From Myxococcota bacterium (lineage in GTDB: Bacteria > Myxococcota_A > UBA9160 > JAFDDA01), in NCBI GenBank assembly GCA_965228475.1, contig OZ245817.1:4864001-4928000 (forward strand): 64,000 nt of DNA. Reading direction: 5' to 3'. This document shows positions 3,244-61,158 of this stretch, piece after piece. Every line of letters starts with the position of its first letter. Position 1 is the first letter of the stretch. A program made the translations under genes and the position numbers. Below the pieces are notes generated by a model that searched no databases, was not told the origin of the DNA, and worked only from the letters and a program-made list of their open reading frames with translations.

Positions 3244-5085
<1,842 letters not shown>

Positions 5086-5094
5086 CTCGAAACC

Positions 5095-5136
5095 CTAGGG
5101 CTCCTCACACTCGTCCTAGAGCTCCTCACACTCGTC
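5095..5136. repeat. 21-bp tandem duplication (1 mismatch) of the 3' end of the adjacent gene
   Basis: ctagggctcctcacactcgtc / ctagagctcctcacactcgtc. Confidence 0.9.
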
Positions 5137-7458
5137 GAGCGGCATCGAGCCGATCCAGTCCGTCATCAGCGCGACACCCTCGTCGTGCACGATCGCCTTG
5201 GCGAGCTCGGGCATCTCGATCGGCGGCACCGCCGAGTCCATGCGGAAGACCAGGATCGATTCGGCCGGGTTCCCCGGAACGATGTCGAAGGTGAAACCGC
5301 CCGAGCCGGGGCCGGCCGCGATCGGGTGCTTGCAGATGCCGAGGTTGAAGTTCTCGGGCTGGGCGGCCTGCAGCCAGAGGCTCGTGAAGCCCGCCCGGCC
5401 GACCGGACTGTGGCAGTGCGCGCAGTTCGACTCGAGGTAGGCGCGCGCGCGCTCGGCCAGGGTGCCGTCGGTCGGATCGTCCCAGACCGGGAGCCGCGGC
5501 TCGTTCTCCGGCACCACCGCCACGTCGAGGATGCCGAGATCGTGCCAGGTCACGAGCTGATTCGTCGTGCCCGTGGCGTCGCCCGGGTCGGGCCGGTTCA
5601 ACAGGCGCGCCTTCGGGCCGATTACGTCCATCGGATCGTTGAAGCCGGTGTGGCAGCCCGCGCACTGGTTCGCGTCCGGCACTTCGTAGACGATCGACGC
5701 TTCGCTCCCGTCCGTGCGCAGCAGGTCGACCGCGACGGCCGCGCCTTCGGGCGTGAAGGCCGCCTCGGTCTCGTCCTCGTTCCAGAGGTAGACGAGCGCC
5801 TTCCAGCCCGCTTCGCGGTGGATCAGCAGGCGCGTCTCGACGATCTGCTCGCCGCCGCCCGGAAGATCGAACGTGAACGTCTTGGTGATGATCGTGCCGA
5901 CCGGGAAGTCGAACACGTCGGCGGCGTTGTACGTCGCGGTCTCGCCCTCGGGTACGAAGGCGAAGCGGTACTTGTTCGCGTAGTCCGAGAAGAGCGGCGT
6001 CGTCAGGTCGTAGAGCACGCCGCGCTCGGTCGCGGGGCCGCGCGGGTCGTTCCCTGCGAAGAGGTTGTAGTCCGAGAGGTTCGGACAGTTGGCCTCGATC
6101 GCGCCCCAGTTGGGTCCGCTTCCCGGGTCCGCACCGCACAGCGCGGCCGTCTCCTCGGGCGAGAGCGGCTCCGAGCCCTCCGGCAGCGGCAGGCGGTCGC
6201 GCAGCACGATCGGCGCGATCGGCGGGTGTTCGCAGTCGAAGGGCGCTTCGTCGTAGCGGTCGACGCCCGGGAAGGCCGTTCCGAGCACGCCCCAGGGATG
6301 GTCCCCGTCCGCGCCCGCTTCGTTGTCGTGGAAGCAGACGCGCAGCGGGTCGGGGAGGAGCTCTTCGGGGCCGAGCCCGTAGTCGGGGTTCCGGATGCGG
6401 TCCCACCAGGCGTCCGGCAGGTCGTTCTGGAACTGGAAGGCGATGACCTGCCCGATCAGGTTCTGCGGAATCGCGCTGTTGTTGTTCATCCGGTTGTGGT
6501 GGACGTGGATGGTCTCGGGGAACACGTCGAAGGCCGGGTCGTAGGGGAGCAGCGTCAGCTCGAAGCTGATCAGCGCGATGCCCGAGGTCAGGTTGTCGTA
6601 GATGTCGTTCTCGAAGATCTCGACGTTGTCCATCGCCATCACGAGGATGCCGATGCCCGAGGGCACGAGCACGAGCAGCGGCGAGGAGCCGAAGTTCGGG
6701 CCGTTGTTGTCGTAGAGCCAGTTGTGGTGGACGCGCGCCGTGCCGCCGACGCGGTTGATGCCCGGGTCGTCGAAGACGAGGATGCCGGCCGTGTTCCCGG
6801 TGGCGATGTTGTGGTGGACGTCTGAGTTCGTGGTGTTCTCGATCTCGATGCCGGCGACGTTGCCCTCGAGGTAGTTGAACCGGACCACCGCGTTGTTCGA
6901 CTGGCCGACGTAGATGCCCGTGTCCTCGGCGCCCTTGATGTAGCAGTACTCGACGAGCACGTTCTCGCTGTTCACCGGGTACACGCCGTAGGGCCCGTTG
7001 TTCGGGTCCGCGAAGCTCTCCCACTCGACCCACACGCGGCGGATGGTCACGCCGTCGACCGCGTCCGCTTTCACGCCGTCACCCGGCGGGTTCATGATGC
7101 GCAGGTCGTGGATCAGGAACTCGTCGCCGAAGGCCGAGAAGGCCTGGGCTCCGGATGCGCCCGAGAAATCGAAGATCGTCTTGTCCATGCCCTGGCCGCG
7201 CACGGTCACGTGGCTCTCGGCGAAGGTCAGGCCCTGGGTCATGACGAAGGTGCCCTCGCCGAACTCGAGGATCGTTCCGGGCGTCGAGAGGTTCACCGCG
7301 CGCCGCACGCGCGTCTCGAAGGCCAGAGCGGACTCCCCGGGCGTCGGTGCGAGGAACACGAGGGTCGTCCCGGGCGGCCCGGGCTCGAGGCGGCAGTTCA
7401 GGGTGAGAAGGGCCGTCAGGATGGCGACGCAGTGCAGCAGGGTTCGGCGAGACTTCAC
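5116..7458 (-). CDS. Parallel beta-helix protein fused to an SO2930-like diheme c-type cytochrome
   Basis: N-half beta-helix (YGVYPV, GIYVGQS, NVAGIEIENT); C-half YDLTTPLFSDYANKYR, ETRLL and two CxxCH motifs (CAGCH, CAHCH). Confidence 0.8.
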   Translation of the reverse strand: MKSRRTLLHCVAILTALLTLNCRLEPGPPGTTLVFLAPTPGESALAFETRVRRAVNLSTPGTILEFGEGTFVMTQGLTFAESHVTVRGQGMDKTIFDFSGASGAQAFSAFGDEFLIHDLRIMNPPGDGVKADAVDGVTIRRVWVEWESFADPNNGPYGVYPVNSENVLVEYCYIKGAEDTGIYVGQSNNAVVRFNYLEGNVAGIEIENTTNSDVHHNIATGNTAGILVFDDPGINRVGGTARVHHNWLYDNNGPNFGSSPLLVLVPSGIGILVMAMDNVEIFENDIYDNLTSGIALISFELTLLPYDPAFDVFPETIHVHHNRMNNNSAIPQNLIGQVIAFQFQNDLPDAWWDRIRNPDYGLGPEELLPDPLRVCFHDNEAGADGDHPWGVLGTAFPGVDRYDEAPFDCEHPPIAPIVLRDRLPLPEGSEPLSPEETAALCGADPGSGPNWGAIEANCPNLSDYNLFAGNDPRGPATERGVLYDLTTPLFSDYANKYRFAFVPEGETATYNAADVFDFPVGTIITKTFTFDLPGGGEQIVETRLLIHREAGWKALVYLWNEDETEAAFTPEGAAVAVDLLRTDGSEASIVYEVPDANQCAGCHTGFNDPMDVIGPKARLLNRPDPGDATGTTNQLVTWHDLGILDVAVVPENEPRLPVWDDPTDGTLAERARAYLESNCAHCHSPVGRAGFTSLWLQAAQPENFNLGICKHPIAAGPGSGGFTFDIVPGNPAESILVFRMDSAVPPIEMPELAKAIVHDEGVALMTDWIGSMPLDECEEL

Positions 7459-8126
7459 GGAGCGTTCTCCAGGTAACGGCCCAGGTAGGCCTTGACCAAG
7501 GTCTTCATTTCATCGGCGATGGCGGGGAGCTTCACCGTGTGATCGTCGGCGGAGGGGTCGATGGCCCATCCTTGGATGCCGGTGGCCGCTTCGATGGTGG
7601 TGCGCGCCACGCACCAGCGCTTCTCCGGGTCGGGGAGCGCGGCAACGAGCTTCGGGTGCGCCGCCAGCGCGCGCGCCACCCGGGCACTCGACGCCGCGCC
7701 CTGGAGCCGGAACTCCGGCGAGAGCACGACGGTCCGGACGAGCACCTGGGTGGTGCGGTCGCGTTCGTGCTCGCTGAAGTTCGTGAGCACCATCTCGACG
7801 ATGCGGTCGACGGCCTCGTCCCAGGGCAGCGCGTAGCTGCTCTCGATCGCGGCGATGGTCTGCGCATCGAGCGCCTCGAGCCGGCGCTGCATGAGCTCGG
7901 CGAGCACGGCGAGGGCGTTCGGGAAGTACTGGTAGAGCGAACCGATCGGGACCCCCGCGCGCTCGGCGATGGCGCTCGCGGTGACCTCGTCGGCCGGGTG
8001 ATCCCCGAGCAGGGACTCCGCCGCCTCGAGCAGGCGCTCGACGCGCTTTCGCCCGCGCTCCTGGACCGGGAGGCGGCGGCGGGCGAGGCGGGAGGGTTCG
8101 GGCGCGGGCTGGGCGTGGGTCGGCAT
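7455..8126 (-). CDS. TetR/AcrR family transcriptional regulator
   Basis: IAERAGVPIGSLYQYFPN HTH. Confidence 0.9.
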   Translation of the reverse strand: MPTHAQPAPEPSRLARRRLPVQERGRKRVERLLEAAESLLGDHPADEVTASAIAERAGVPIGSLYQYFPNALAVLAELMQRRLEALDAQTIAAIESSYALPWDEAVDRIVEMVLTNFSEHERDRTTQVLVRTVVLSPEFRLQGAASSARVARALAAHPKLVAALPDPEKRWCVARTTIEAATGIQGWAIDPSADDHTVKLPAIADEMKTLVKAYLGRYLENAP

Positions 8127-55895: not shown

Positions 55896-56092
55896 TCCGG
55901 GCCCCTCCCTGCCCCTCACTTCGGTGCAACTCGCCGGCAGGTTGAGCCGGAGAGGGGCGCCTGGAGCGCCCTCTCCACGGCACCGCAAGAATTGGACCTC
56001 GATCGGCGGCCAAAATGGGAAGTAGGTACTTGATGCAATGGCGCACCAGTCCACCGGACCGCAGTCTTCGCTGTTAGTTCGGCGTGAGCGGC

Positions 56093-56464
56093 CTAGTCCG
56101 TCAGGTTCTTGGAGCGGATCTCGTGAGCGTGAACTCCGGACTCAATCTCGTTGATGAGCTTGAGCACCGCCTCGGTGGCGTCGCCCGCCTGTTGACGCAT
56201 GTGGATCCCTAGGTGGCCGATCAGCTCAACGGCTCGTTGCGCGAACTCGTGGAGCGTTGAGAGGTCGGCGATCTGCCGCTCCCGCAGCTCGTCGGTCAGG
56301 GCGTAGAGATTCGACGCGGTGGAGGCCGCGCCGAGCACGTCCGTGACCCAGGCGTTCGTGCTCTTGCCGGAGCGCGCCGCCGCAACCGAGACGGCCCGGT
56401 GAACCTCGGGACTCATCCGAATGCCCATCATCACCCGTTCGGTTTTCTCGGGGGTTGTAGTCAA
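56093..56464 (-). CDS. Arc/HicB-like ribbon-helix-helix DNA-binding protein
   Basis: TTG start after GGAGGGAG; GIRMSPEVHRAVSVAAARSGKSTNAWV RHH pattern. Confidence 0.7.
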   Translation of the reverse strand: MTTTPEKTERVMMGIRMSPEVHRAVSVAAARSGKSTNAWVTDVLGAASTASNLYALTDELRERQIADLSTLHEFAQRAVELIGHLGIHMRQQAGDATEAVLKLINEIESGVHAHEIRSKNLTD

Positions 56465-56483
56465 AGCTCCCTCCCTGGCGATT

Positions 56484-56573
56484 TGGCGGAGAGGGTGGGA
56501 TTCGAACCCACGGGGGGTGTAGGCCCCCAGGCGATTTTGAGTCGCCCGCCTTAAGCCGCTCGGCCACCTCTCC
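56484..56573 (-). tRNA. tRNA with a tRNA-Ser body and CAA (Leu) anticodon
   Basis: GGAGAGG TG GCC-GAGCGGCTTAA-GGC G GGCGA-CTCAAAA-TCGCC T GGGGG-CCTACA-CCCCC C GTGGG-TTCGAAT-CCCAC CCTCTCC G CCA; all stems pair; G73 and encoded CCA. Confidence 0.92.
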
Positions 56574-56632
56574 GCCGTGATAGCGGAGTTAGCAACCAGG
56601 CATCTGATACGCAAGAAATCTCGCACCCGCCC

Positions 56633-56670
56633 AAAAAAAGCGGGGCACGGGTCCTACACCCCCGTGCCCC
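56633..56670 (-). terminator. Intrinsic terminator upstream of the tRNA
   Basis: Perfect 10-bp stem ggggcacggg/cccgtgcccc followed by 7 U on the minus strand. Confidence 0.85.
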
Positions 56671-56809
56671 TAGTTCGCGGTGGCCGAGCGGCCTAGTCCG
56701 CGTAACAGTCTTCCTCCGCTAGAGCGGATGGTCTTGGCGGCCCCTTTAGGGGGAGGTGTCCTTCACGACAACTCGCGTGTTACACCACCGCACTCGTGGG
56801 TCGCAAGTA
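56633..56809 (-). ncRNA. Putative structured sRNA/leader with anti-tRNA segments
   Basis: Nested stems 56677-83/56785-91 and 56702-07/56778-83 enclose three hairpins; bounded by a promoter-like element and a terminator. Confidence 0.55.
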
Positions 56810-56814
56810 TCCAG

Positions 56815-56842
56815 ATTCTAAGCAATTTCCGTGCCTTGACAA
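56815..56842 (-). promoter_or_regulatory. Sigma70-like promoter for the sRNA/tRNA unit
   Basis: TTGTCA-N16-TAGAAT on the minus strand, overlapped by an inverted repeat at 56831-56859. Confidence 0.55.
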
Positions 56843-56937
56843 GTCGTGTCAAAAGGCACTGGAAATCAACATCTTTCCAAGCGCGTTGGATGGCTGCGGC
56901 GGAACGAAAGTTCACTACTTGGGAACTATCTTCTTAT

Positions 56938-56966
56938 TTGCAATAAAGTAAAAGATACTGTATCGT
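56938..56966 (+). promoter_or_regulatory. Sigma70-like promoter for a probably leaderless transposase mRNA
   Basis: TTGCAA-N17-TATCGT, 7 nt before ATG 56974. Confidence 0.5.
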
Positions 56967-56973
56967 CTTGGGT

Positions 56974-57966
56974 ATGGCGAAGAAGCACCCCCGCAACCCG
57001 ATCCTCGACGCGCTCCGCGAGGCAAGCCAGGACGAGGCGAAGGCCGTCGAGCTGCTTGAGGCTCGCCGCTTCGGCGACACGCCCGGCTGCCCCCGTTGCG
57101 GGGACACCGACGTCTACAAGATGCGGGACCGAAAGACGGGCGAGCGCGAGAAGAACTACCGATGGCGCTGCCGCGGCTGCAAGAAGATGTTCACGGTTCG
57201 CACCGGGACGATATTCGAGGAGACGCGGCTGCCGCTGCGCGTGTGGGTCTACGCTTTCTGGAAAGCGTGCGCGTCGAAGAAGGGTATCAGCGCCCTACAG
57301 ATCAGCCGGGAGTGCGAGATCAGCTACAAGAGCGCGCTCTATCTCATGCACCGCATCCGATATGCCATGCTCGAAGATCCCAGTGGCCAGCCGAAGCTCT
57401 CCGGCACGGTCGAAGTTGACGAGACGTTCGTCGGCGGAAAGCCGCGCCACTCCGTCCGAACGAAGATCAACCCGGTCACCGGAATGAAGCACCAGTACCT
57501 CCCGGCCTCCGCGAAGCCTGGTGGTTCGCCGAAGGTTCCCGTCGTTGCTCTGGTCGAGCGTGGAGGCCGTGTCCGTGCGCGTCAGATTGAGCGGGTGGAT
57601 CGCGAGTCTCTAGGCGGTGCCGTCCACGAGCTGGTCGAGTCTGGCGCAACGATCCATACCGATGAGAACCCGAGCTACCGCCACCTCGGCGCGCGCTACT
57701 CGCACGACTCCGTGAACCACACGCGGAAGGAGTACGTTCGTGGCGATGTGACTACCAACACGGTGGAAGGTTTCTTCTCCCTGCTCAAGCGTGGCGTCTA
57801 CGGGACGTTCCACTCCGTGAGCAAGCATCATCTTCATCGCTATCTGGCCGAGTTTGAGTTTCGGTACAACCACCGAGAACTCGACGACGGGGCGCGGACC
57901 CTCGCCGCTATCGACGGGGGAGAAGGGAAGCGCCTTTTGTATGAGCGATCTCCGACAACGGTCTAG
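56974..57966 (+). CDS. IS1595-family DDE transposase
   Basis: Zn ribbon CPRC...CRGC, RTGTIFE, EVDETFVGG, HTDE, VNH, TNTVEGFFSLLKRG, YLAEFEFRYN. Confidence 0.95.
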   Translation: MAKKHPRNPILDALREASQDEAKAVELLEARRFGDTPGCPRCGDTDVYKMRDRKTGEREKNYRWRCRGCKKMFTVRTGTIFEETRLPLRVWVYAFWKACASKKGISALQISRECEISYKSALYLMHRIRYAMLEDPSGQPKLSGTVEVDETFVGGKPRHSVRTKINPVTGMKHQYLPASAKPGGSPKVPVVALVERGGRVRARQIERVDRESLGGAVHELVESGATIHTDENPSYRHLGARYSHDSVNHTRKEYVRGDVTTNTVEGFFSLLKRGVYGTFHSVSKHHLHRYLAEFEFRYNHRELDDGARTLAAIDGGEGKRLLYERSPTTV

Positions 57967-57990
57967 TGGCGTACAGCTCCAACTTAAGCT

Positions 57991-58458
57991 CTAGCCCTGG
58001 ATCGTCACGCTGTGCTGCTTGATCTCAATGAAGAGTCTTCGGTCCTTCGCAGTCAGCCTGCGGTTGTGCTCCAGCTCGATCAGCTCAAGAGAGTGCTTGA
58101 CGCGGGCAAGCTCGCTCGCCTTGGTCTCGTTGCATTCGAGCGAGACCACGCCGAGGTTGCGCATTTTTGTGCGGCTACCCTTCGGCAGCCGTCGACTCGT
58201 CACCTCCTTGAAGTCCTTGTAGTTTCGTGTGACCAGAACCGCTCCGAGGTCATTCCCCGCCATCGCGATGACCTCGTCGGGTGACTGAAGGAGAAGGAGA
58301 TCGGAAACGTGGACGGTCTCGTGGTGCGCCGCCTTCAGTTCGTCGGCAACCCACAGGGGGACGTTCTCATCAATAAGGAAACGGATCCGTGGCTTGAGGC
58401 TCGGGTCAGCCGGCCTTGCGTCGTCGTGAGCGTTCGTCTCGGATCGCTGCCTTGACAT
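57991..58458 (-). CDS. DUF5615-family PIN-like toxin (start uncertain)
   Basis: FLIDENV, PDEVI, LVTRNYKDF acidic PIN motifs; downstream of a DUF433 gene. Confidence 0.8.
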   Translation of the reverse strand: MSRQRSETNAHDDARPADPSLKPRIRFLIDENVPLWVADELKAAHHETVHVSDLLLLQSPDEVIAMAGNDLGAVLVTRNYKDFKEVTSRRLPKGSRTKMRNLGVVSLECNETKASELARVKHSLELIELEHNRRLTAKDRRLFIEIKQHSVTIQG

Positions 58459-59047
58459 CCTTCTCAGTCAGTGTCGGGAAGCCGTCTACGATCTCTTCAA
58501 CGGTCATCCCAGAGCTGAAGTACCGCCAGATCAAACTGCTGGGAATCCGTGTTCCTGCAATCACTTGACGCCCGTTGAGGACATTCCTCCGTTTCGAGAG
58601 TTTCCCGATATCGGAGTCCTTCCGTGACCGCTTGCGCTTCAGAAGCCGCACGGTGTCGCTCCGCACTTCCTCAAGGTCGATCACCAGGATCGGGGTTTGC
58701 CTGTGAGGTTTCGTTGAGACGACTTCGTCAGTCCTAGGATCTCGGTACAGAAGCTCCTTCCCGGACAGAAAGAACTTGATGCTGGCCCACGGGTTGGGGT
58801 GATCTTCGTGAAACTCCTCATGGAGCGCACGATCTACCTTCCGAAGCTCTTGGAGGGGCACCCGCGTCCTGATCGGCGCGATGGCGCGAAGACCCACCAG
58901 GTCCCGGAACGAGTACACCCTTCGGTCGTCAACCAGGTACTCAGGGGAGAAGAAGTCAGTCTTGTCCCAGTATCGGAGTTGACGCTTGCTCAGTCCCGTC
59001 AGCTCCGCGACTTGGTCCTCGCCGAAGTAGGCGATCGAGTCAGTCAT
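58406..59047 (-). CDS. MerR-HTH + DUF433 antitoxin
   Basis: VAELTGLSKRQLRYWD HTH; C-terminal GRQVIAGTRIP...GMTVEEIVDGFPTLTEKDVKAA. Confidence 0.85.
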   Translation of the reverse strand: MTDSIAYFGEDQVAELTGLSKRQLRYWDKTDFFSPEYLVDDRRVYSFRDLVGLRAIAPIRTRVPLQELRKVDRALHEEFHEDHPNPWASIKFFLSGKELLYRDPRTDEVVSTKPHRQTPILVIDLEEVRSDTVRLLKRKRSRKDSDIGKLSKRRNVLNGRQVIAGTRIPSSLIWRYFSSGMTVEEIVDGFPTLTEKDVKAAIRDERSRRRKAG

Positions 59048-59222
59048 CCGAGCACACCCCTATTGTTGCGTCCGAGCGGTTCGCTACCGTTCGGACGTCG
59101 GATGTGCCGACAGAGATTCCTCCTAAGACCTCGCCGGGCCAGGGCGGGGTCTTTGGTTTTCTGGGCCACGGCGGAAACCGGCCCTTCGGGTAGTCTCACC
59201 CCCCACACGCTATATTCCCGCT

Positions 59223-59372
59223 GTGGCTGATCCGGTCAAGCGCCCCGGCCCCGAGCCGGAGACATTGAAGGTCGAAATCGACCCCGAAGAGGGGTTGGCT
59301 CGCCTCTTGCGCGCCCAGCCGAAGCCGCCTCCGAAGGCGAAGAAAAAGCCCTCGAAGCGCCGGAAGTCCTAG
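59223..59372 (+). CDS. Small basic protein, 49 aa (IS passenger)
   Basis: GTG 6 nt after TATATT; MADPVKRPGPEPETLKVEIDPEEGLARLLRAQPKPPPKAKKKPSKRRKS. Confidence 0.55.
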   Translation: MADPVKRPGPEPETLKVEIDPEEGLARLLRAQPKPPPKAKKKPSKRRKS

Positions 59373-59515
59373 TCCTGGCCCTCTAGGGCCGCAGCGATCC
59401 TCTCCAGCGCCTCAGCGATCCGCCCAAATACCTGAACGATATTCGGATCTTCTCCGATCTTGGGAACGCGGTTGAAGGCATCGTTGACAGCCTGTGCGAG
59501 TGAGTCCTTGCTCAT
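59369..59515 (-). CDS. Small hypothetical protein, 48 aa (IS passenger)
   Basis: MSKDSLAQAVNDAFNRVPKIGEDPNIVQVFGRIAEALERIAAALEGQD; stop overlaps the convergent ORF stop at CTAG. Confidence 0.45.
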   Translation of the reverse strand: MSKDSLAQAVNDAFNRVPKIGEDPNIVQVFGRIAEALERIAAALEGQD

Positions 59516-59670
59516 GGGTCACCAGGCTAACCGCAGGGCTCCGAACGCACAACGAACCGATAGACCGGCTACTTAGGCGATTCCAATGCAATTCCGCGGC
59601 ATTGCATTGGATCCATACTTCCGGCCAAAATGGAGCTTTCCGGGACGGATTGGTGCCCTAGGCTCTCGCC

Positions 59671-61158
59671 ATGCTCGAGTTCAGCTTCCAGCCCGATCGC
59701 ACCCGCCGGGAGCCCGTCTATCGCCAGCTCGAGGGGTATCTCCGCGAGCTCGTCGAGAGCCGCCGGCTCGCCGCGGGGGAGCGCCTACCCGCGAGCCGCG
59801 AGCTGGCCGCGGCCCTCGGGCTCTCGCGCAACACGGTGAACCAGGCCTATCAGGCGCTGGTCGACGACGGTCTGCTCGCCTCCCACGTCGGCCAGGGGAC
59901 CTTCGTGCAGCGCCAGCCGGGGCCGGCCCTGCGGCCGGTCGGGCCCGCGGCGCGCGGCTTTGCCTGGGCCGGGCTGTTCGCGCGCCGCACCGCGGCGGTC
60001 GCGCTTCCGCCGGCCATCCTCGCCGCCGGCCGCATGCCGAACCCGCCCTTCGACTTCCGCCCGGGCCACGTCGACCTCGCGACGATCCCGAAGACGGAGC
60101 TCCGCCGCGCGATGTCGAAGGCGACGGAGCAGGTCGAGATGCTCGCGACCTGCCAGGACCCGCGCGGCTGGTTTCCGCTGCGCGAGCAGATCGCGCGCGC
60201 GCTCGTCGGGCGCGGCATCCGCTGCGGCCCGGACGACGTCGCGGTGGTGAGCGGTGCGCAGCAGGCCCTCGATCTCACCGCGCGCGTGCTCCTCGACCCC
60301 GGCGACACCGTCGTGATGGAGCAGCCGGGCTACTTCGGCGCCGCGCTGGCCTTCGGCGCGAGCGAAGCGCACCTGGTCGGTGTCGGCGTGGACGAGCACG
60401 GGCTTCGCACGGACGAGCTCGCCCGCATCCTGCGCGCGCGCCGCGTGAAGCTCGTCTACACGACGCCGGCCGTGCAGAGCCCGACGGGCGTCGTGCTCTC
60501 CGACGAACGCCGCCGCGCGCTCCTCGACCTCGCCGACGAGTACCAGGTGCCCGTGGTCGAGGACGACTACGACAGCGAGCTGCGCTACGGCACGCCGCCG
60601 ACGCCGGCCCTGAAGACCCAGGACGAAGCGGGCCAGGTGATCTACGCCGGCACCTTCTCGAAGGCGCTCTTCGCCGGCATCCGCGTCGGCTACGTCGTGG
60701 CGGCGCAGCCCTTCCTGCTCCAGCTGATGGCGACGCGCCTGGCCGCGGACTTCCGCACGGACCTGCTCGCCCAGGCCGCCATGGCCGAGCTGCTCGAGAG
60801 CGGCGGCCTCGAGCGCCACGTGCGGCGCGTGCGCCGCCTCTACTCCGCGCGCCGCGCCGCGATGCTCGACGCCCTGCGCGCGCACATGCCCGAGGGCACC
60901 CACGTCACCGAACCCGCCGGCGGCAACACGGTCTGGGTGCGGCTTCCGTCGGGCATCGACGGGGCCGCCTTCCACGCCGCGGCCCTGGCCGCCGGGATCG
61001 AGTACGGACGCGGCGATCTCTTCCGCCTCGACGGGGCGAGCATCGACCACGCCCATCTTTCCTTCGCCCAGATGGGGCCGCGCAAGATCCAGGAAGGCGT
61101 CGCGCGCCTGGCCGATCTCGCCCGCTCCGAACTCCGCCGCGCCCGCGAAACCGCCTAG
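59671..61158 (+). CDS. MocR/GabR-type GntR regulator with PLP-dependent aminotransferase domain
   Basis: LPASRELAAALGLSRNTV, SGAQQAL, EDDYDSE, GTFSK. Confidence 0.92.
   Translation: MLEFSFQPDRTRREPVYRQLEGYLRELVESRRLAAGERLPASRELAAALGLSRNTVNQAYQALVDDGLLASHVGQGTFVQRQPGPALRPVGPAARGFAWAGLFARRTAAVALPPAILAAGRMPNPPFDFRPGHVDLATIPKTELRRAMSKATEQVEMLATCQDPRGWFPLREQIARALVGRGIRCGPDDVAVVSGAQQALDLTARVLLDPGDTVVMEQPGYFGAALAFGASEAHLVGVGVDEHGLRTDELARILRARRVKLVYTTPAVQSPTGVVLSDERRRALLDLADEYQVPVVEDDYDSELRYGTPPTPALKTQDEAGQVIYAGTFSKALFAGIRVGYVVAAQPFLLQLMATRLAADFRTDLLAQAAMAELLESGGLERHVRRVRRLYSARRAAMLDALRAHMPEGTHVTEPAGGNTVWVRLPSGIDGAAFHAAALAAGIEYGRGDLFRLDGASIDHAHLSFAQMGPRKIQEGVARLADLARSELRRARETA

Follow-up and report, generated by a model that had tools for sequence, protein, structure and literature searches.

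The DNA analysed here is a 64,000-nucleotide stretch (the window) of contig OZ245817.1 from a Myxococcota bacterium (assembly GCA_965228475.1, positions 4,864,001 to 4,928,000), the genome of which is one contig of 5.0 Mb with a GC content of 70.5%. ARAGORN finds exactly one tRNA gene in this 64-kb window, at 56484–56573 on the minus strand, with the anticodon CAA, and labels it tRNA-Leu. A preliminary description of the sequence had read the same gene as a tRNA of serine identity carrying a leucine anticodon, borne as cargo by an insertion sequence (IS) and a candidate for mistranslation. The gene lies in a transposon of the IS1595 family that extends, by homology, over 3607 bp (56017–59623), in a cassette between the left end and the only transposase gene inside the element.

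56484–56573, minus strand: tRNA gene with a serine-type body, anticodon CAA, G73 and an encoded CCA (ARAGORN, Rfam, fold and isotype models)
56040–56925, minus strand: cargo cassette, approximately 885 bp in length and flanked by the left end and the transposase gene, missing from the closest related element (genome G528)
56968–57966, plus strand: gene for the IS1595-family transposase of 332 residues (Pfam DDE_Tnp_IS1595, E 1.1e-42; Zn_ribbon_IS1595, E 7.8e-09)

The tRNA gene is 90 nucleotides long and encodes an intact type II cloverleaf, with the position, anatomy and encoded CCA that had been described for it, as ARAGORN, Rfam, folding and direct reading of the sequence confirm. It scores 56.3 bits against the Rfam tRNA model (gathering score 29) and, folded alone, forms acceptor, T and variable stems of 7, 5 and 5 bp, respectively, with a fold energy of −43.5 kcal/mol that is equalled by 6 of 200 shuffles. 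The acceptor stem has the pairs G1–C72, G2–C71, A3–U70 and G4–C69, followed by G73 and the CCA end; the variable region of 18 nucleotides contains its 5-bp stem with a single U on the 5' side and a single C on the 3' side. All stem pairs and all conserved tertiary bases are intact. The anticodon loop, CUCAAAA, is the same as that of the host tRNA-Leu(CAA), and the anticodon occupies 56539–56537 (middle base 56538). This CAA triplet differs from the serine anticodon CGA by one transition, the loops being otherwise alike.

Outside the anticodon and variable arms the molecule is identical to the host tRNA-Ser(GGA), with which it shares its first 27 and last 30 bases, the D arm included. Its overall identity is 74–80% to the four host tRNA-Ser genes (anticodons TGA, GCT, GGA and CGA), 71% to tRNA-Tyr and 46–65% to the five ordinary host tRNA-Leu genes (TAA, TAG, CAA, GAG and CAG), all taken from an ARAGORN list of the genome that is unfiltered and includes some obvious false positives. 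The bacterial serine determinants given in Table 1 of PMC9976931 are G73, C72, G2–C71, R4–Y69, C11–G24, G30–C40 and a large variable region, and every one of them is present in the element tRNA, C11–G24 and G30–C40 included. In the same source A73 is the key leucine determinant, G73 is an antideterminant against the leucyl- and tyrosyl-tRNA synthetases (LeuRS and TyrRS), and serine, leucine and alanine are the only three bacterial systems that have no determinant inside the anticodon triplet in Table 1.

The leucine discriminator A73 is absent from the element tRNA and present in all five host tRNA-Leu genes and in 14 of 14 tRNA-Leu(CAA) genes of relatives. The host tRNA-Leu genes all begin with GC and have G1–C72/C2–G71, compared with G1–C72/G2–C71 in the element tRNA, and the 14 tRNA-Leu(CAA) genes of relatives share one invariant acceptor stem that is quite unlike it. 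Its D arm (with the placement of G18G19 and A20a compared) and its acceptor stem are unlike those of every host and relative tRNA-Leu. No serine anticodon (NGA or GCU) is present, the leucine anticodon CAA standing in its place. Judged by its sequence, and leaving the anticodon aside, the element gene is a tRNA-Ser by all the features tested.

Isotype scoring, carried out with covariance models in place of tRNAscan-SE 2, agrees with the serine identity that had been proposed. Two order-specific models were built, one from 14 tRNA-Ser genes and the other from 14 tRNA-Leu(CAA) genes of relatives. The element tRNA scores 101 bits on the serine model and 69.4 bits on the leucine model, approximately 32 bits apart, and is lower on the latter even though that model was trained on CAA loops and so favours CAA. 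As controls, four true tRNA-Leu(CAA) genes score 47.5–70.2 bits on the serine model and five true tRNA-Ser genes score 49.0–61.8 bits on the leucine model. The best BLAST matches in 40 related genomes all fall on tRNA-Ser genes, with identities of at most 82%, and ARAGORN finds 15 tRNA-Ser genes (all of the type II tRNAs there) and five tRNA-Arg genes at 11 of those loci, none with the anticodon CAA.

The limits of the transposon are set by comparison with related elements, chiefly one at locus L132 of genome G215, the transposase of which is 57% identical and which has a clean 8-bp target duplication beside homologous ends.

56009–56016, no strand assigned: left copy of the target-site duplication, probably 8 bp, GCCAAAAT, its length taken from homology with L132
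56017–56044, plus strand: left terminal inverted repeat, pairing with 59596–59622 at 20 of 27 positions (blastn-short)
59596–59623, minus strand: right terminal inverted repeat, pairing with the left end; all 12 bases of 59612–59623 are the same in the right end of the L132 element
59624–59631, no strand assigned: right copy of the target-site duplication, placed by the 12-base repeat and by homology with L132

The left end (56018–56031) likewise shares 13 of 14 positions with that of the L132 element, and the end motifs are also common to the elements at loci L133 and L141. A perfect 12-base direct repeat (56007–56018 and 59622–59633) abuts the inverted repeats; this 12-mer occurs exactly twice in the window, where the chance expectation is 0.12, and is native intergenic sequence because it aligns with the uninterrupted site of genome G002. 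The alignment with L132 suggests that the repeat comprises an 8-bp target duplication plus two coincident bases on either side, from the single copy of the element available here. Ungapped repeat scans (17 of 22 or 13 of 16 matches) found no ends, and a gapped short-word search did; two copies in G215 were also tried as a guide to the ends and set aside, being only 66% identical to each other and uninformative. The target duplication, together with terminal repeats homologous to the ends of relatives, supports the location of the tRNA gene inside the element, as had been claimed.

The element is present once in the host genome and its GC content is 60.5%, compared with 71–73% in the flanking DNA. 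In G002, a genome of the same family, the two flanking genes lie approximately 220 bp apart, and in G001, of the same genus, the whole stretch is missing. The closest transposase relative (78% identity) is in G528, a member of the same order and another family, where it belongs to a 2.5-kb element (locus L154, G528:C6:17000-29000, at approximately 5063–7605 of the reverse complement; also seen as L141) at the orthologous chromosomal site, upstream of a GntR-aminotransferase gene and beside homologous target sequence. The flanking genes of the two genomes are 69–75% identical and the transposase genes 75% identical, a similar divergence. The shared site could reflect either an old insertion that was inherited and lost several times (G001 and G002 being without it) or a site-specific element; a long residence fits poorly with a GC content approximately ten points below that of the host. 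In its architecture the element resembles the passenger-carrying IS1595-family elements that Siguier, Gagnevin and Chandler reportedly called 'transporter IS' in 2009, with its zinc-ribbon-bearing DDE_Tnp_IS1595 transposase, its terminal inverted repeats and the passenger genes between its ends, and with a target duplication that is probably of 8 bp.

In the G528 element the left end lies approximately 70 nucleotides before the transposase gene, so the 885 bp found here constitute an extra cassette. A copy in genome G471 (79% identity over the part available) has a different insert of approximately 600 bp at the same position. On the minus strand of the cassette a promoter-like site comes first, followed by a leader that includes a terminator-like hairpin, by the tRNA gene and by a gene for a ribbon-helix-helix (RHH) protein.

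56815–56842, minus strand: sigma-70-like promoter match (consensus match only, 10 of 12 positions), approximately 240 nucleotides upstream of the tRNA gene
56670–56700, plus strand: internal direct repeat, copy 2 (core 56686–56700), containing the 17-nucleotide D-arm complement
56642–56662, minus strand: terminator-like hairpin with a T run (consensus scan), approximately 60 nucleotides upstream of the tRNA gene
56093–56464, minus strand: gene for an RHH protein of 123 residues (Pfam HicB, RHH part of the model only, E 4.4e-08)
56072–56100, plus strand: internal direct repeat, copy 1 (core 56086–56100), overlapping the RHH stop codon

Two parts of the leader are complementary to the tRNA. The stretch 56649–56663, within the hairpin, matches the variable arm at 14 of 15 positions, the hairpin loop being complementary to the variable-arm loop, and 17 nucleotides within 56676–56695 match the D-arm region at 16 of 17 positions. 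When 56470–56815 is folded, the latter stretch base-pairs with the 5' portion of the tRNA, with a z-score of −4.8 and no shuffle as good. The leader might inhibit itself, serve as an attenuator or preserve remnants of rearranged tRNA genes. The internal direct repeat is imperfect (27–31 nucleotides, with a perfect core of 15), brackets the RHH and tRNA genes and is similar in sequence to a type II tRNA's 5' half; it could be a trace of the way in which the tRNA–RHH unit was acquired.

The RHH gene has a TTG start and a strong Shine–Dalgarno sequence and begins 19 nucleotides past the CCA end of the tRNA; the form of 123 residues is also the database's own gene call (P0001). No terminator-like site was found between the two genes, so that co-transcription is likely. 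Homologues of the RHH protein are scarce: HMMER finds 14 distant ones among 1.8 billion representatives, a word-index search finds only the protein itself, and five weak N-terminal matches occur in 400 genomes of the phylum. Two further loci come from a metagenome scan, which used an alignment of six of the 15 sequences, all 15 being too diverse.

Homologues of the transposase occupy 32 distinct places, in 30 of 400 other genomes of the phylum (E ≤ 1e-20) and in 10 of 224 other genomes of the class (E ≤ 1e-35). At two of these places (L132 and L118) a type II tRNA gene with a leucine-type body (A73 and a leucine-type D arm) carries the proline anticodon UGG, and at two more (L142 and L114) a conserved, compact tRNA-like gene of approximately 70 nucleotides stands near the transposase gene.

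L132:3112–3200, minus strand: Leu-type tRNA(UGG), 89 nucleotides, beside the transposase that is 57% identical and inside the element ends; C at position 33 instead of U
L118:1343–1435, plus strand: Leu-type tRNA(UGG), 93 nucleotides, beside a transposase that is 42% identical
L142:271–340 and L114:232–301, both minus strand: Ala-marked tRNA-like genes, with G2–C71, G3–U70, G4–C69 and A73

The L132 and L118 tRNAs score 64.0 and 61.1 bits on the leucine model, compared with 44.2 and 43.7 bits on the serine model. The L142 and L114 genes have a 9-bp anticodon stem, the loop CUUGGAA and no CCA; they are called by neither ARAGORN nor Rfam and score 21.7 and 17.2 bits on the serine model. The preliminary description had proposed a test of whether non-serine anticodons recur beside IS1595 transposases; they do so at two of the 32 places, in Leu-type tRNAs with UGG, and at two more in Ala-marked genes with a loop that contains UGG. 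A second, distant IS1595-family transposase (41% identity) is encoded in the host genome itself (L148, G000:C1:3273360-3274283), with no tRNA within 1.5 kb.

Recoding of the elements' own transposase genes was considered and rejected. The only internal TTG codon of the transposase gene (residue 324) aligns with L, L, R, M and T and never with S, and in L132 and L118 the CCR codons fall at conserved prolines.

A search of 185,579 species genomes with a pattern describing type II tRNAs that combine a CAA loop with G73-CCA gave at least 80 matching loci. The majority of the loci listed represent pieces of tRNA genes or chance matches; a CAA tRNA is called by ARAGORN at the match in ten, and a check of the stems keeps ten. 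At least seven unrelated genome loci (L023, L067, L061, L068, L016, L021 and L084) favour serine by at least 20 bits and four are ambiguous, the scores of distant loci being rough since both models are order-specific. Two of the seven, L061 and L067 from Acidobacteria, are tRNAs of the same kind with broken acceptor stems. Type II tRNAs with CAA and G73 occur in four Dehalococcoidia genomes (L016, L084, L043, L075 and L093), one of which has two copies; L016 and L084, on one chromosome, lean towards serine, and L043, L075 and L093 are ambiguous. Viral contigs give six matches to the pattern, two of which are tRNAs; of these L140 favours serine by 17 bits and L136 leans towards leucine. Some of the CAA/G73 loci have a neighbouring gene for a relaxase or for a transposase of the Mu or DDE_Tnp_1 type; an IS1595 transposase was found within 2.5 kb of none of the 11 loci scanned.

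A seryl-tRNA synthetase (SerRS) with an N-terminal tRNA-binding arm (PF02403) is encoded once in the genome, far from the element, and normal tRNA-Leu(CAA) and tRNA-Leu(UAA) genes are retained. In 2948 long open reading frames (ORFs) with high third-position GC content, 59.7% of leucine codons are CTC, 33.0% are CTG and 2.45% are TTG, in agreement with the CUC/CUG usage noted earlier. TTG amounts to 2.49 per 1000 codons, at least one internal TTG is present in 1578 of the 2948 ORFs, and the codon is used at conserved leucine positions; many host proteins would be exposed to UUG miscoding, with few sites in each.

The favoured reading of the locus, to which a probability of about 0.6 is assigned, is that the 885-bp cassette of this 3.6-kb IS1595 transposon carries as cargo an intact gene for a serine-accepting tRNA that would read UUG. 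The cassette would be transcribed together with the RHH gene, and the single host SerRS, which is blind to the anticodon, would charge the tRNA with serine. LeuRS would reject it because of G73, and EF-Tu would deliver it like the host tRNA-Ser(GGA) because the acceptor and T arms are identical. On the ribosome the tRNA would compete with tRNA-Leu(CAA) and tRNA-Leu(UAA), such that a fraction of UUG codons would be read as serine; from these properties we infer that serine insertion at UUG is probable. Since UUG is rare in a host of 70.5% GC, the damage would stay tolerable. More speculatively, the RHH protein and the hairpin leader may hold expression low or conditional.

Several observations weigh against this reading. 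The only promoter-like site found near the tRNA gene is approximately 240 nucleotides upstream, with the terminator-like hairpin in between and no match immediately before the gene, and the cassette is lacking in G528, the closest related element. The element tRNA has no orthologue among the 40 relatives, in which the best matches are ordinary tRNA-Ser genes of at most 82% identity. Across the phylum the CAA–G73 pattern matches in only two of 400 other genomes, neither match being a tRNA, at a sensitivity of approximately 40% (the A73 version of the pattern finds tRNA-Leu(CAA) in 16 of 41 genomes). A conserved module of RHH and tRNA genes, considered as a candidate, is not supported: a tRNA stands beside neither of the two metagenome loci and none of the five weak phylum matches, a tiny sample. 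Of the 32 transposase places, 28 have no odd tRNA (one has an ordinary-looking tRNA-Arg and 27 have none), and the two TTG codons of the element itself would be miscoded by the tRNA as well.

Alternatively, the gene could be a passenger that is neutral or in decay: a tRNA-Ser(CGA), carried as cargo, that has undergone a single G35A change and has persisted through being silent or barely expressed in a host where UUG is rare, without any selected function. This is a possible account, if a distinctly less probable one. It is consistent with CAA being one transition from CGA in an otherwise similar loop, with the lack of a CAA orthologue among the relatives searched, with the remote promoter match and the terminator-like hairpin preceding the gene, with the absence of the cassette from the closest element and with the broken acceptor stems of the Acidobacteria loci L061 and L067, which look like decay. 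Against it, all stem pairs and conserved tertiary bases are intact and the CCA is retained, and among the tRNAs read there is no tRNA-Ser(CGA) gene with the same anticodon stem or variable arm. Moreover, mismatched tRNAs recur on related IS1595 elements, always with bodies of an anticodon-blind type, and Ser-type CAA tRNAs are found at no fewer than seven unrelated genome loci and on one viral contig. A role outside decoding is unlikely. The RNA might serve as a decoy, antitoxin or regulator (for example of a PIN-like nuclease or a tRNA-targeting enzyme), or act in cis within the cassette, which would suit the PIN-like DUF5615 protein of this element and the NYN nuclease of the L132 element, the complementarity of the leader to the D arm and variable loop, and the suggestion of Mukai et al. 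(PMC5389517) that many allo-tRNA(UAU) species are unused in translation. No evidence ties the tRNA to the nucleases, however; its body is that of a functional host tRNA-Ser and its loop equals that of tRNA-Leu(CAA) in the host, and nothing would bar it from translation once made.

That the gene provides a true additional tRNA-Leu, which LeuRS would charge despite its appearance, is highly improbable: the anticodon and the ARAGORN label are those of tRNA-Leu, but G73, the G2–C71 pair in place of the C2–G71 of host tRNA-Leu, the serine-type D and variable arms, a leucine-model score 32 bits below the serine-model score and the different, A73-bearing acceptor stem shared by the 14 tRNA-Leu(CAA) genes of relatives all argue otherwise. 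That the middle anticodon base results from an error of assembly or sequencing, a concern raised in the preliminary description, is barely conceivable, as Logan contigs from runs X1 (covering 56484–61000) and X2 (56484–59651), which belong to two studies, repeat CAA with no differences; one of these runs is possibly the source sample, and such contigs drop rare variants. Run X3 covers part of the gene without the anticodon, and run X6 gives fragments only.

A broader reading extends the favoured one to the whole clade. The IS1595 clade would be a vehicle for deliberately mismatched tRNAs on anticodon-blind bodies (serine here; leucine and alanine-like in relatives), and the cassette, with its promoter, tRNA-complementary hairpin leader, tRNA and RHH repressor, would act like a toxin–antitoxin or stress module, placing serine for leucine at UUG conditionally and thereby stabilizing the element or harming UUG-rich invaders. 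This proposal is doubtful and is offered tentatively. The related suggestion in the preliminary description that the tRNA acts as an RNA toxin or antiphage effector finds no support: the six proteins of the element, compared with PADLOC, give one weak MerR-type match (20.5 bits) and no significant defence family.

Among known systems the closest are the allo-tRNAs, natural bacterial tRNAs of serine identity with non-serine anticodons that include readers of UUA, UUG, CUA and CUG (Mukai et al. 2017, PMC5389517). In E. coli, allo-tRNAs of serine identity that bear leucine anticodons place serine at CUC and UUA codons and have a toxic effect, growth being arrested; allo-tRNAs often lie beside toxin–antitoxin genes, and one overlaps a transposon-related ORF (PMC5389517). 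The element tRNA has in common with them a serine identity and a non-serine anticodon, and its action would resemble theirs or that of the yeast tRNA-Ser(CAG) described below. However, allo-tRNAs have an 8/4 or 9/3 structure (a 12-bp acceptor branch), whereas the element tRNA is a canonical 7/5 molecule with three arms identical to those of the host isoacceptor, and it sits within defined IS1595 transposon ends. It is not an allo-tRNA, because it lacks the 8/4 or 9/3 geometry. The tRNA-Ser(CAG) of the yeast CUG-Ser clades also combines a serine body with a leucine anticodon, and its evolution was possible because SerRS ignores the anticodon; it differs in being eukaryotic and chromosomal, the codon having been taken over as a change of the code (PMC11415595). 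Here the host keeps tRNA-Leu(CAA) and tRNA-Leu(UAA) and uses TTG at conserved leucines, so the mobile element would bring about ambiguous decoding at most. In Streptomyces and Kitasatospora, the tRNAProX/ProRSx systems comprise hybrid-identity tRNAs that mistranslate sense codons, in a biological role described as unknown (PMC11415595). These depend on a dedicated synthetase paralogue, whereas the element tRNA needs none; it does not form a pair of this type because no dedicated synthetase accompanies it, the one PF02403 match in the genome being distant. In the literature searched, with subscription journals and supplements outside its range, no report of a natural canonical tRNA-Ser(CAA) was found, nor any report of mismatched tRNAs on IS1595 elements; the one paper retrieved for tRNA-Ser(CAA) concerns in vitro codes. 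The 'isotype mismatch' counts of the tRNAscan-SE 2.0 paper compare program versions and not tRNA bodies with anticodons.

The remainder of the element holds three further passenger genes.

57991–58458, minus strand: gene for a DUF5615/PIN-like protein (Pfam)
58406–59047, minus strand: gene for a MerR-HTH and DUF433 protein (Pfam)
59223–59372, plus strand: gene for a 49-residue protein near the right end, conserved in the L132 and G528 elements

The 49-residue protein is 50% identical over 30 residues to the product of L132:3897–4070 on the plus strand (E 2e-08 for the pair), and DNA homology to the G528 element extends over 59107–59342. Proteins of 49–57 residues near the right end of related elements are rich in proline and glutamate, have a basic tail and belong to no Pfam family. 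The related L132 element carries an NYN nuclease. No synthetase gene lies inside the element, and a search for other RNA families within it gave sub-threshold matches only and no T-box.

Just inside the right end, upstream of a gene for a GntR-aminotransferase (PdxR-like) protein, there is a near-perfect palindrome of 30 bp (59582–59611), to which half-sites near the left end (approximately 56031–56040) are related; the palindrome may represent an operator that the element has copied or captured. Elsewhere in the host genome ARAGORN reports an 80-nucleotide 'tRNA-Thr(CGT)' (G000:C1:1040397-1040476), the 3' half of which is identical to that of the normal tRNA-Thr(CGT) at 1153046–1153121; it resembles a duplicated attachment site of the kind that an integrated element leaves behind.

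To our knowledge, few natural tRNAs break the codon table, and the bacterial cases described are the structurally unusual allo-tRNAs and the tRNAProX family with its own synthetase. The element gene encodes a perfectly canonical serine tRNA that needs no special enzyme, on a defined transposon whose relatives carry other mismatched tRNAs. Its annotation by ARAGORN as tRNA-Leu bears on how tRNA genes are annotated. With a single tRNA, a small repressor-like gene and one rare codon, the locus offers a compact and directly testable system. Should the tRNAs prove active, a small cassette would be enough for miscoding to spread horizontally, which would bear on changes of the genetic code and on the costs and uses of mistranslation; transposons of this kind may spread deliberate translation errors.

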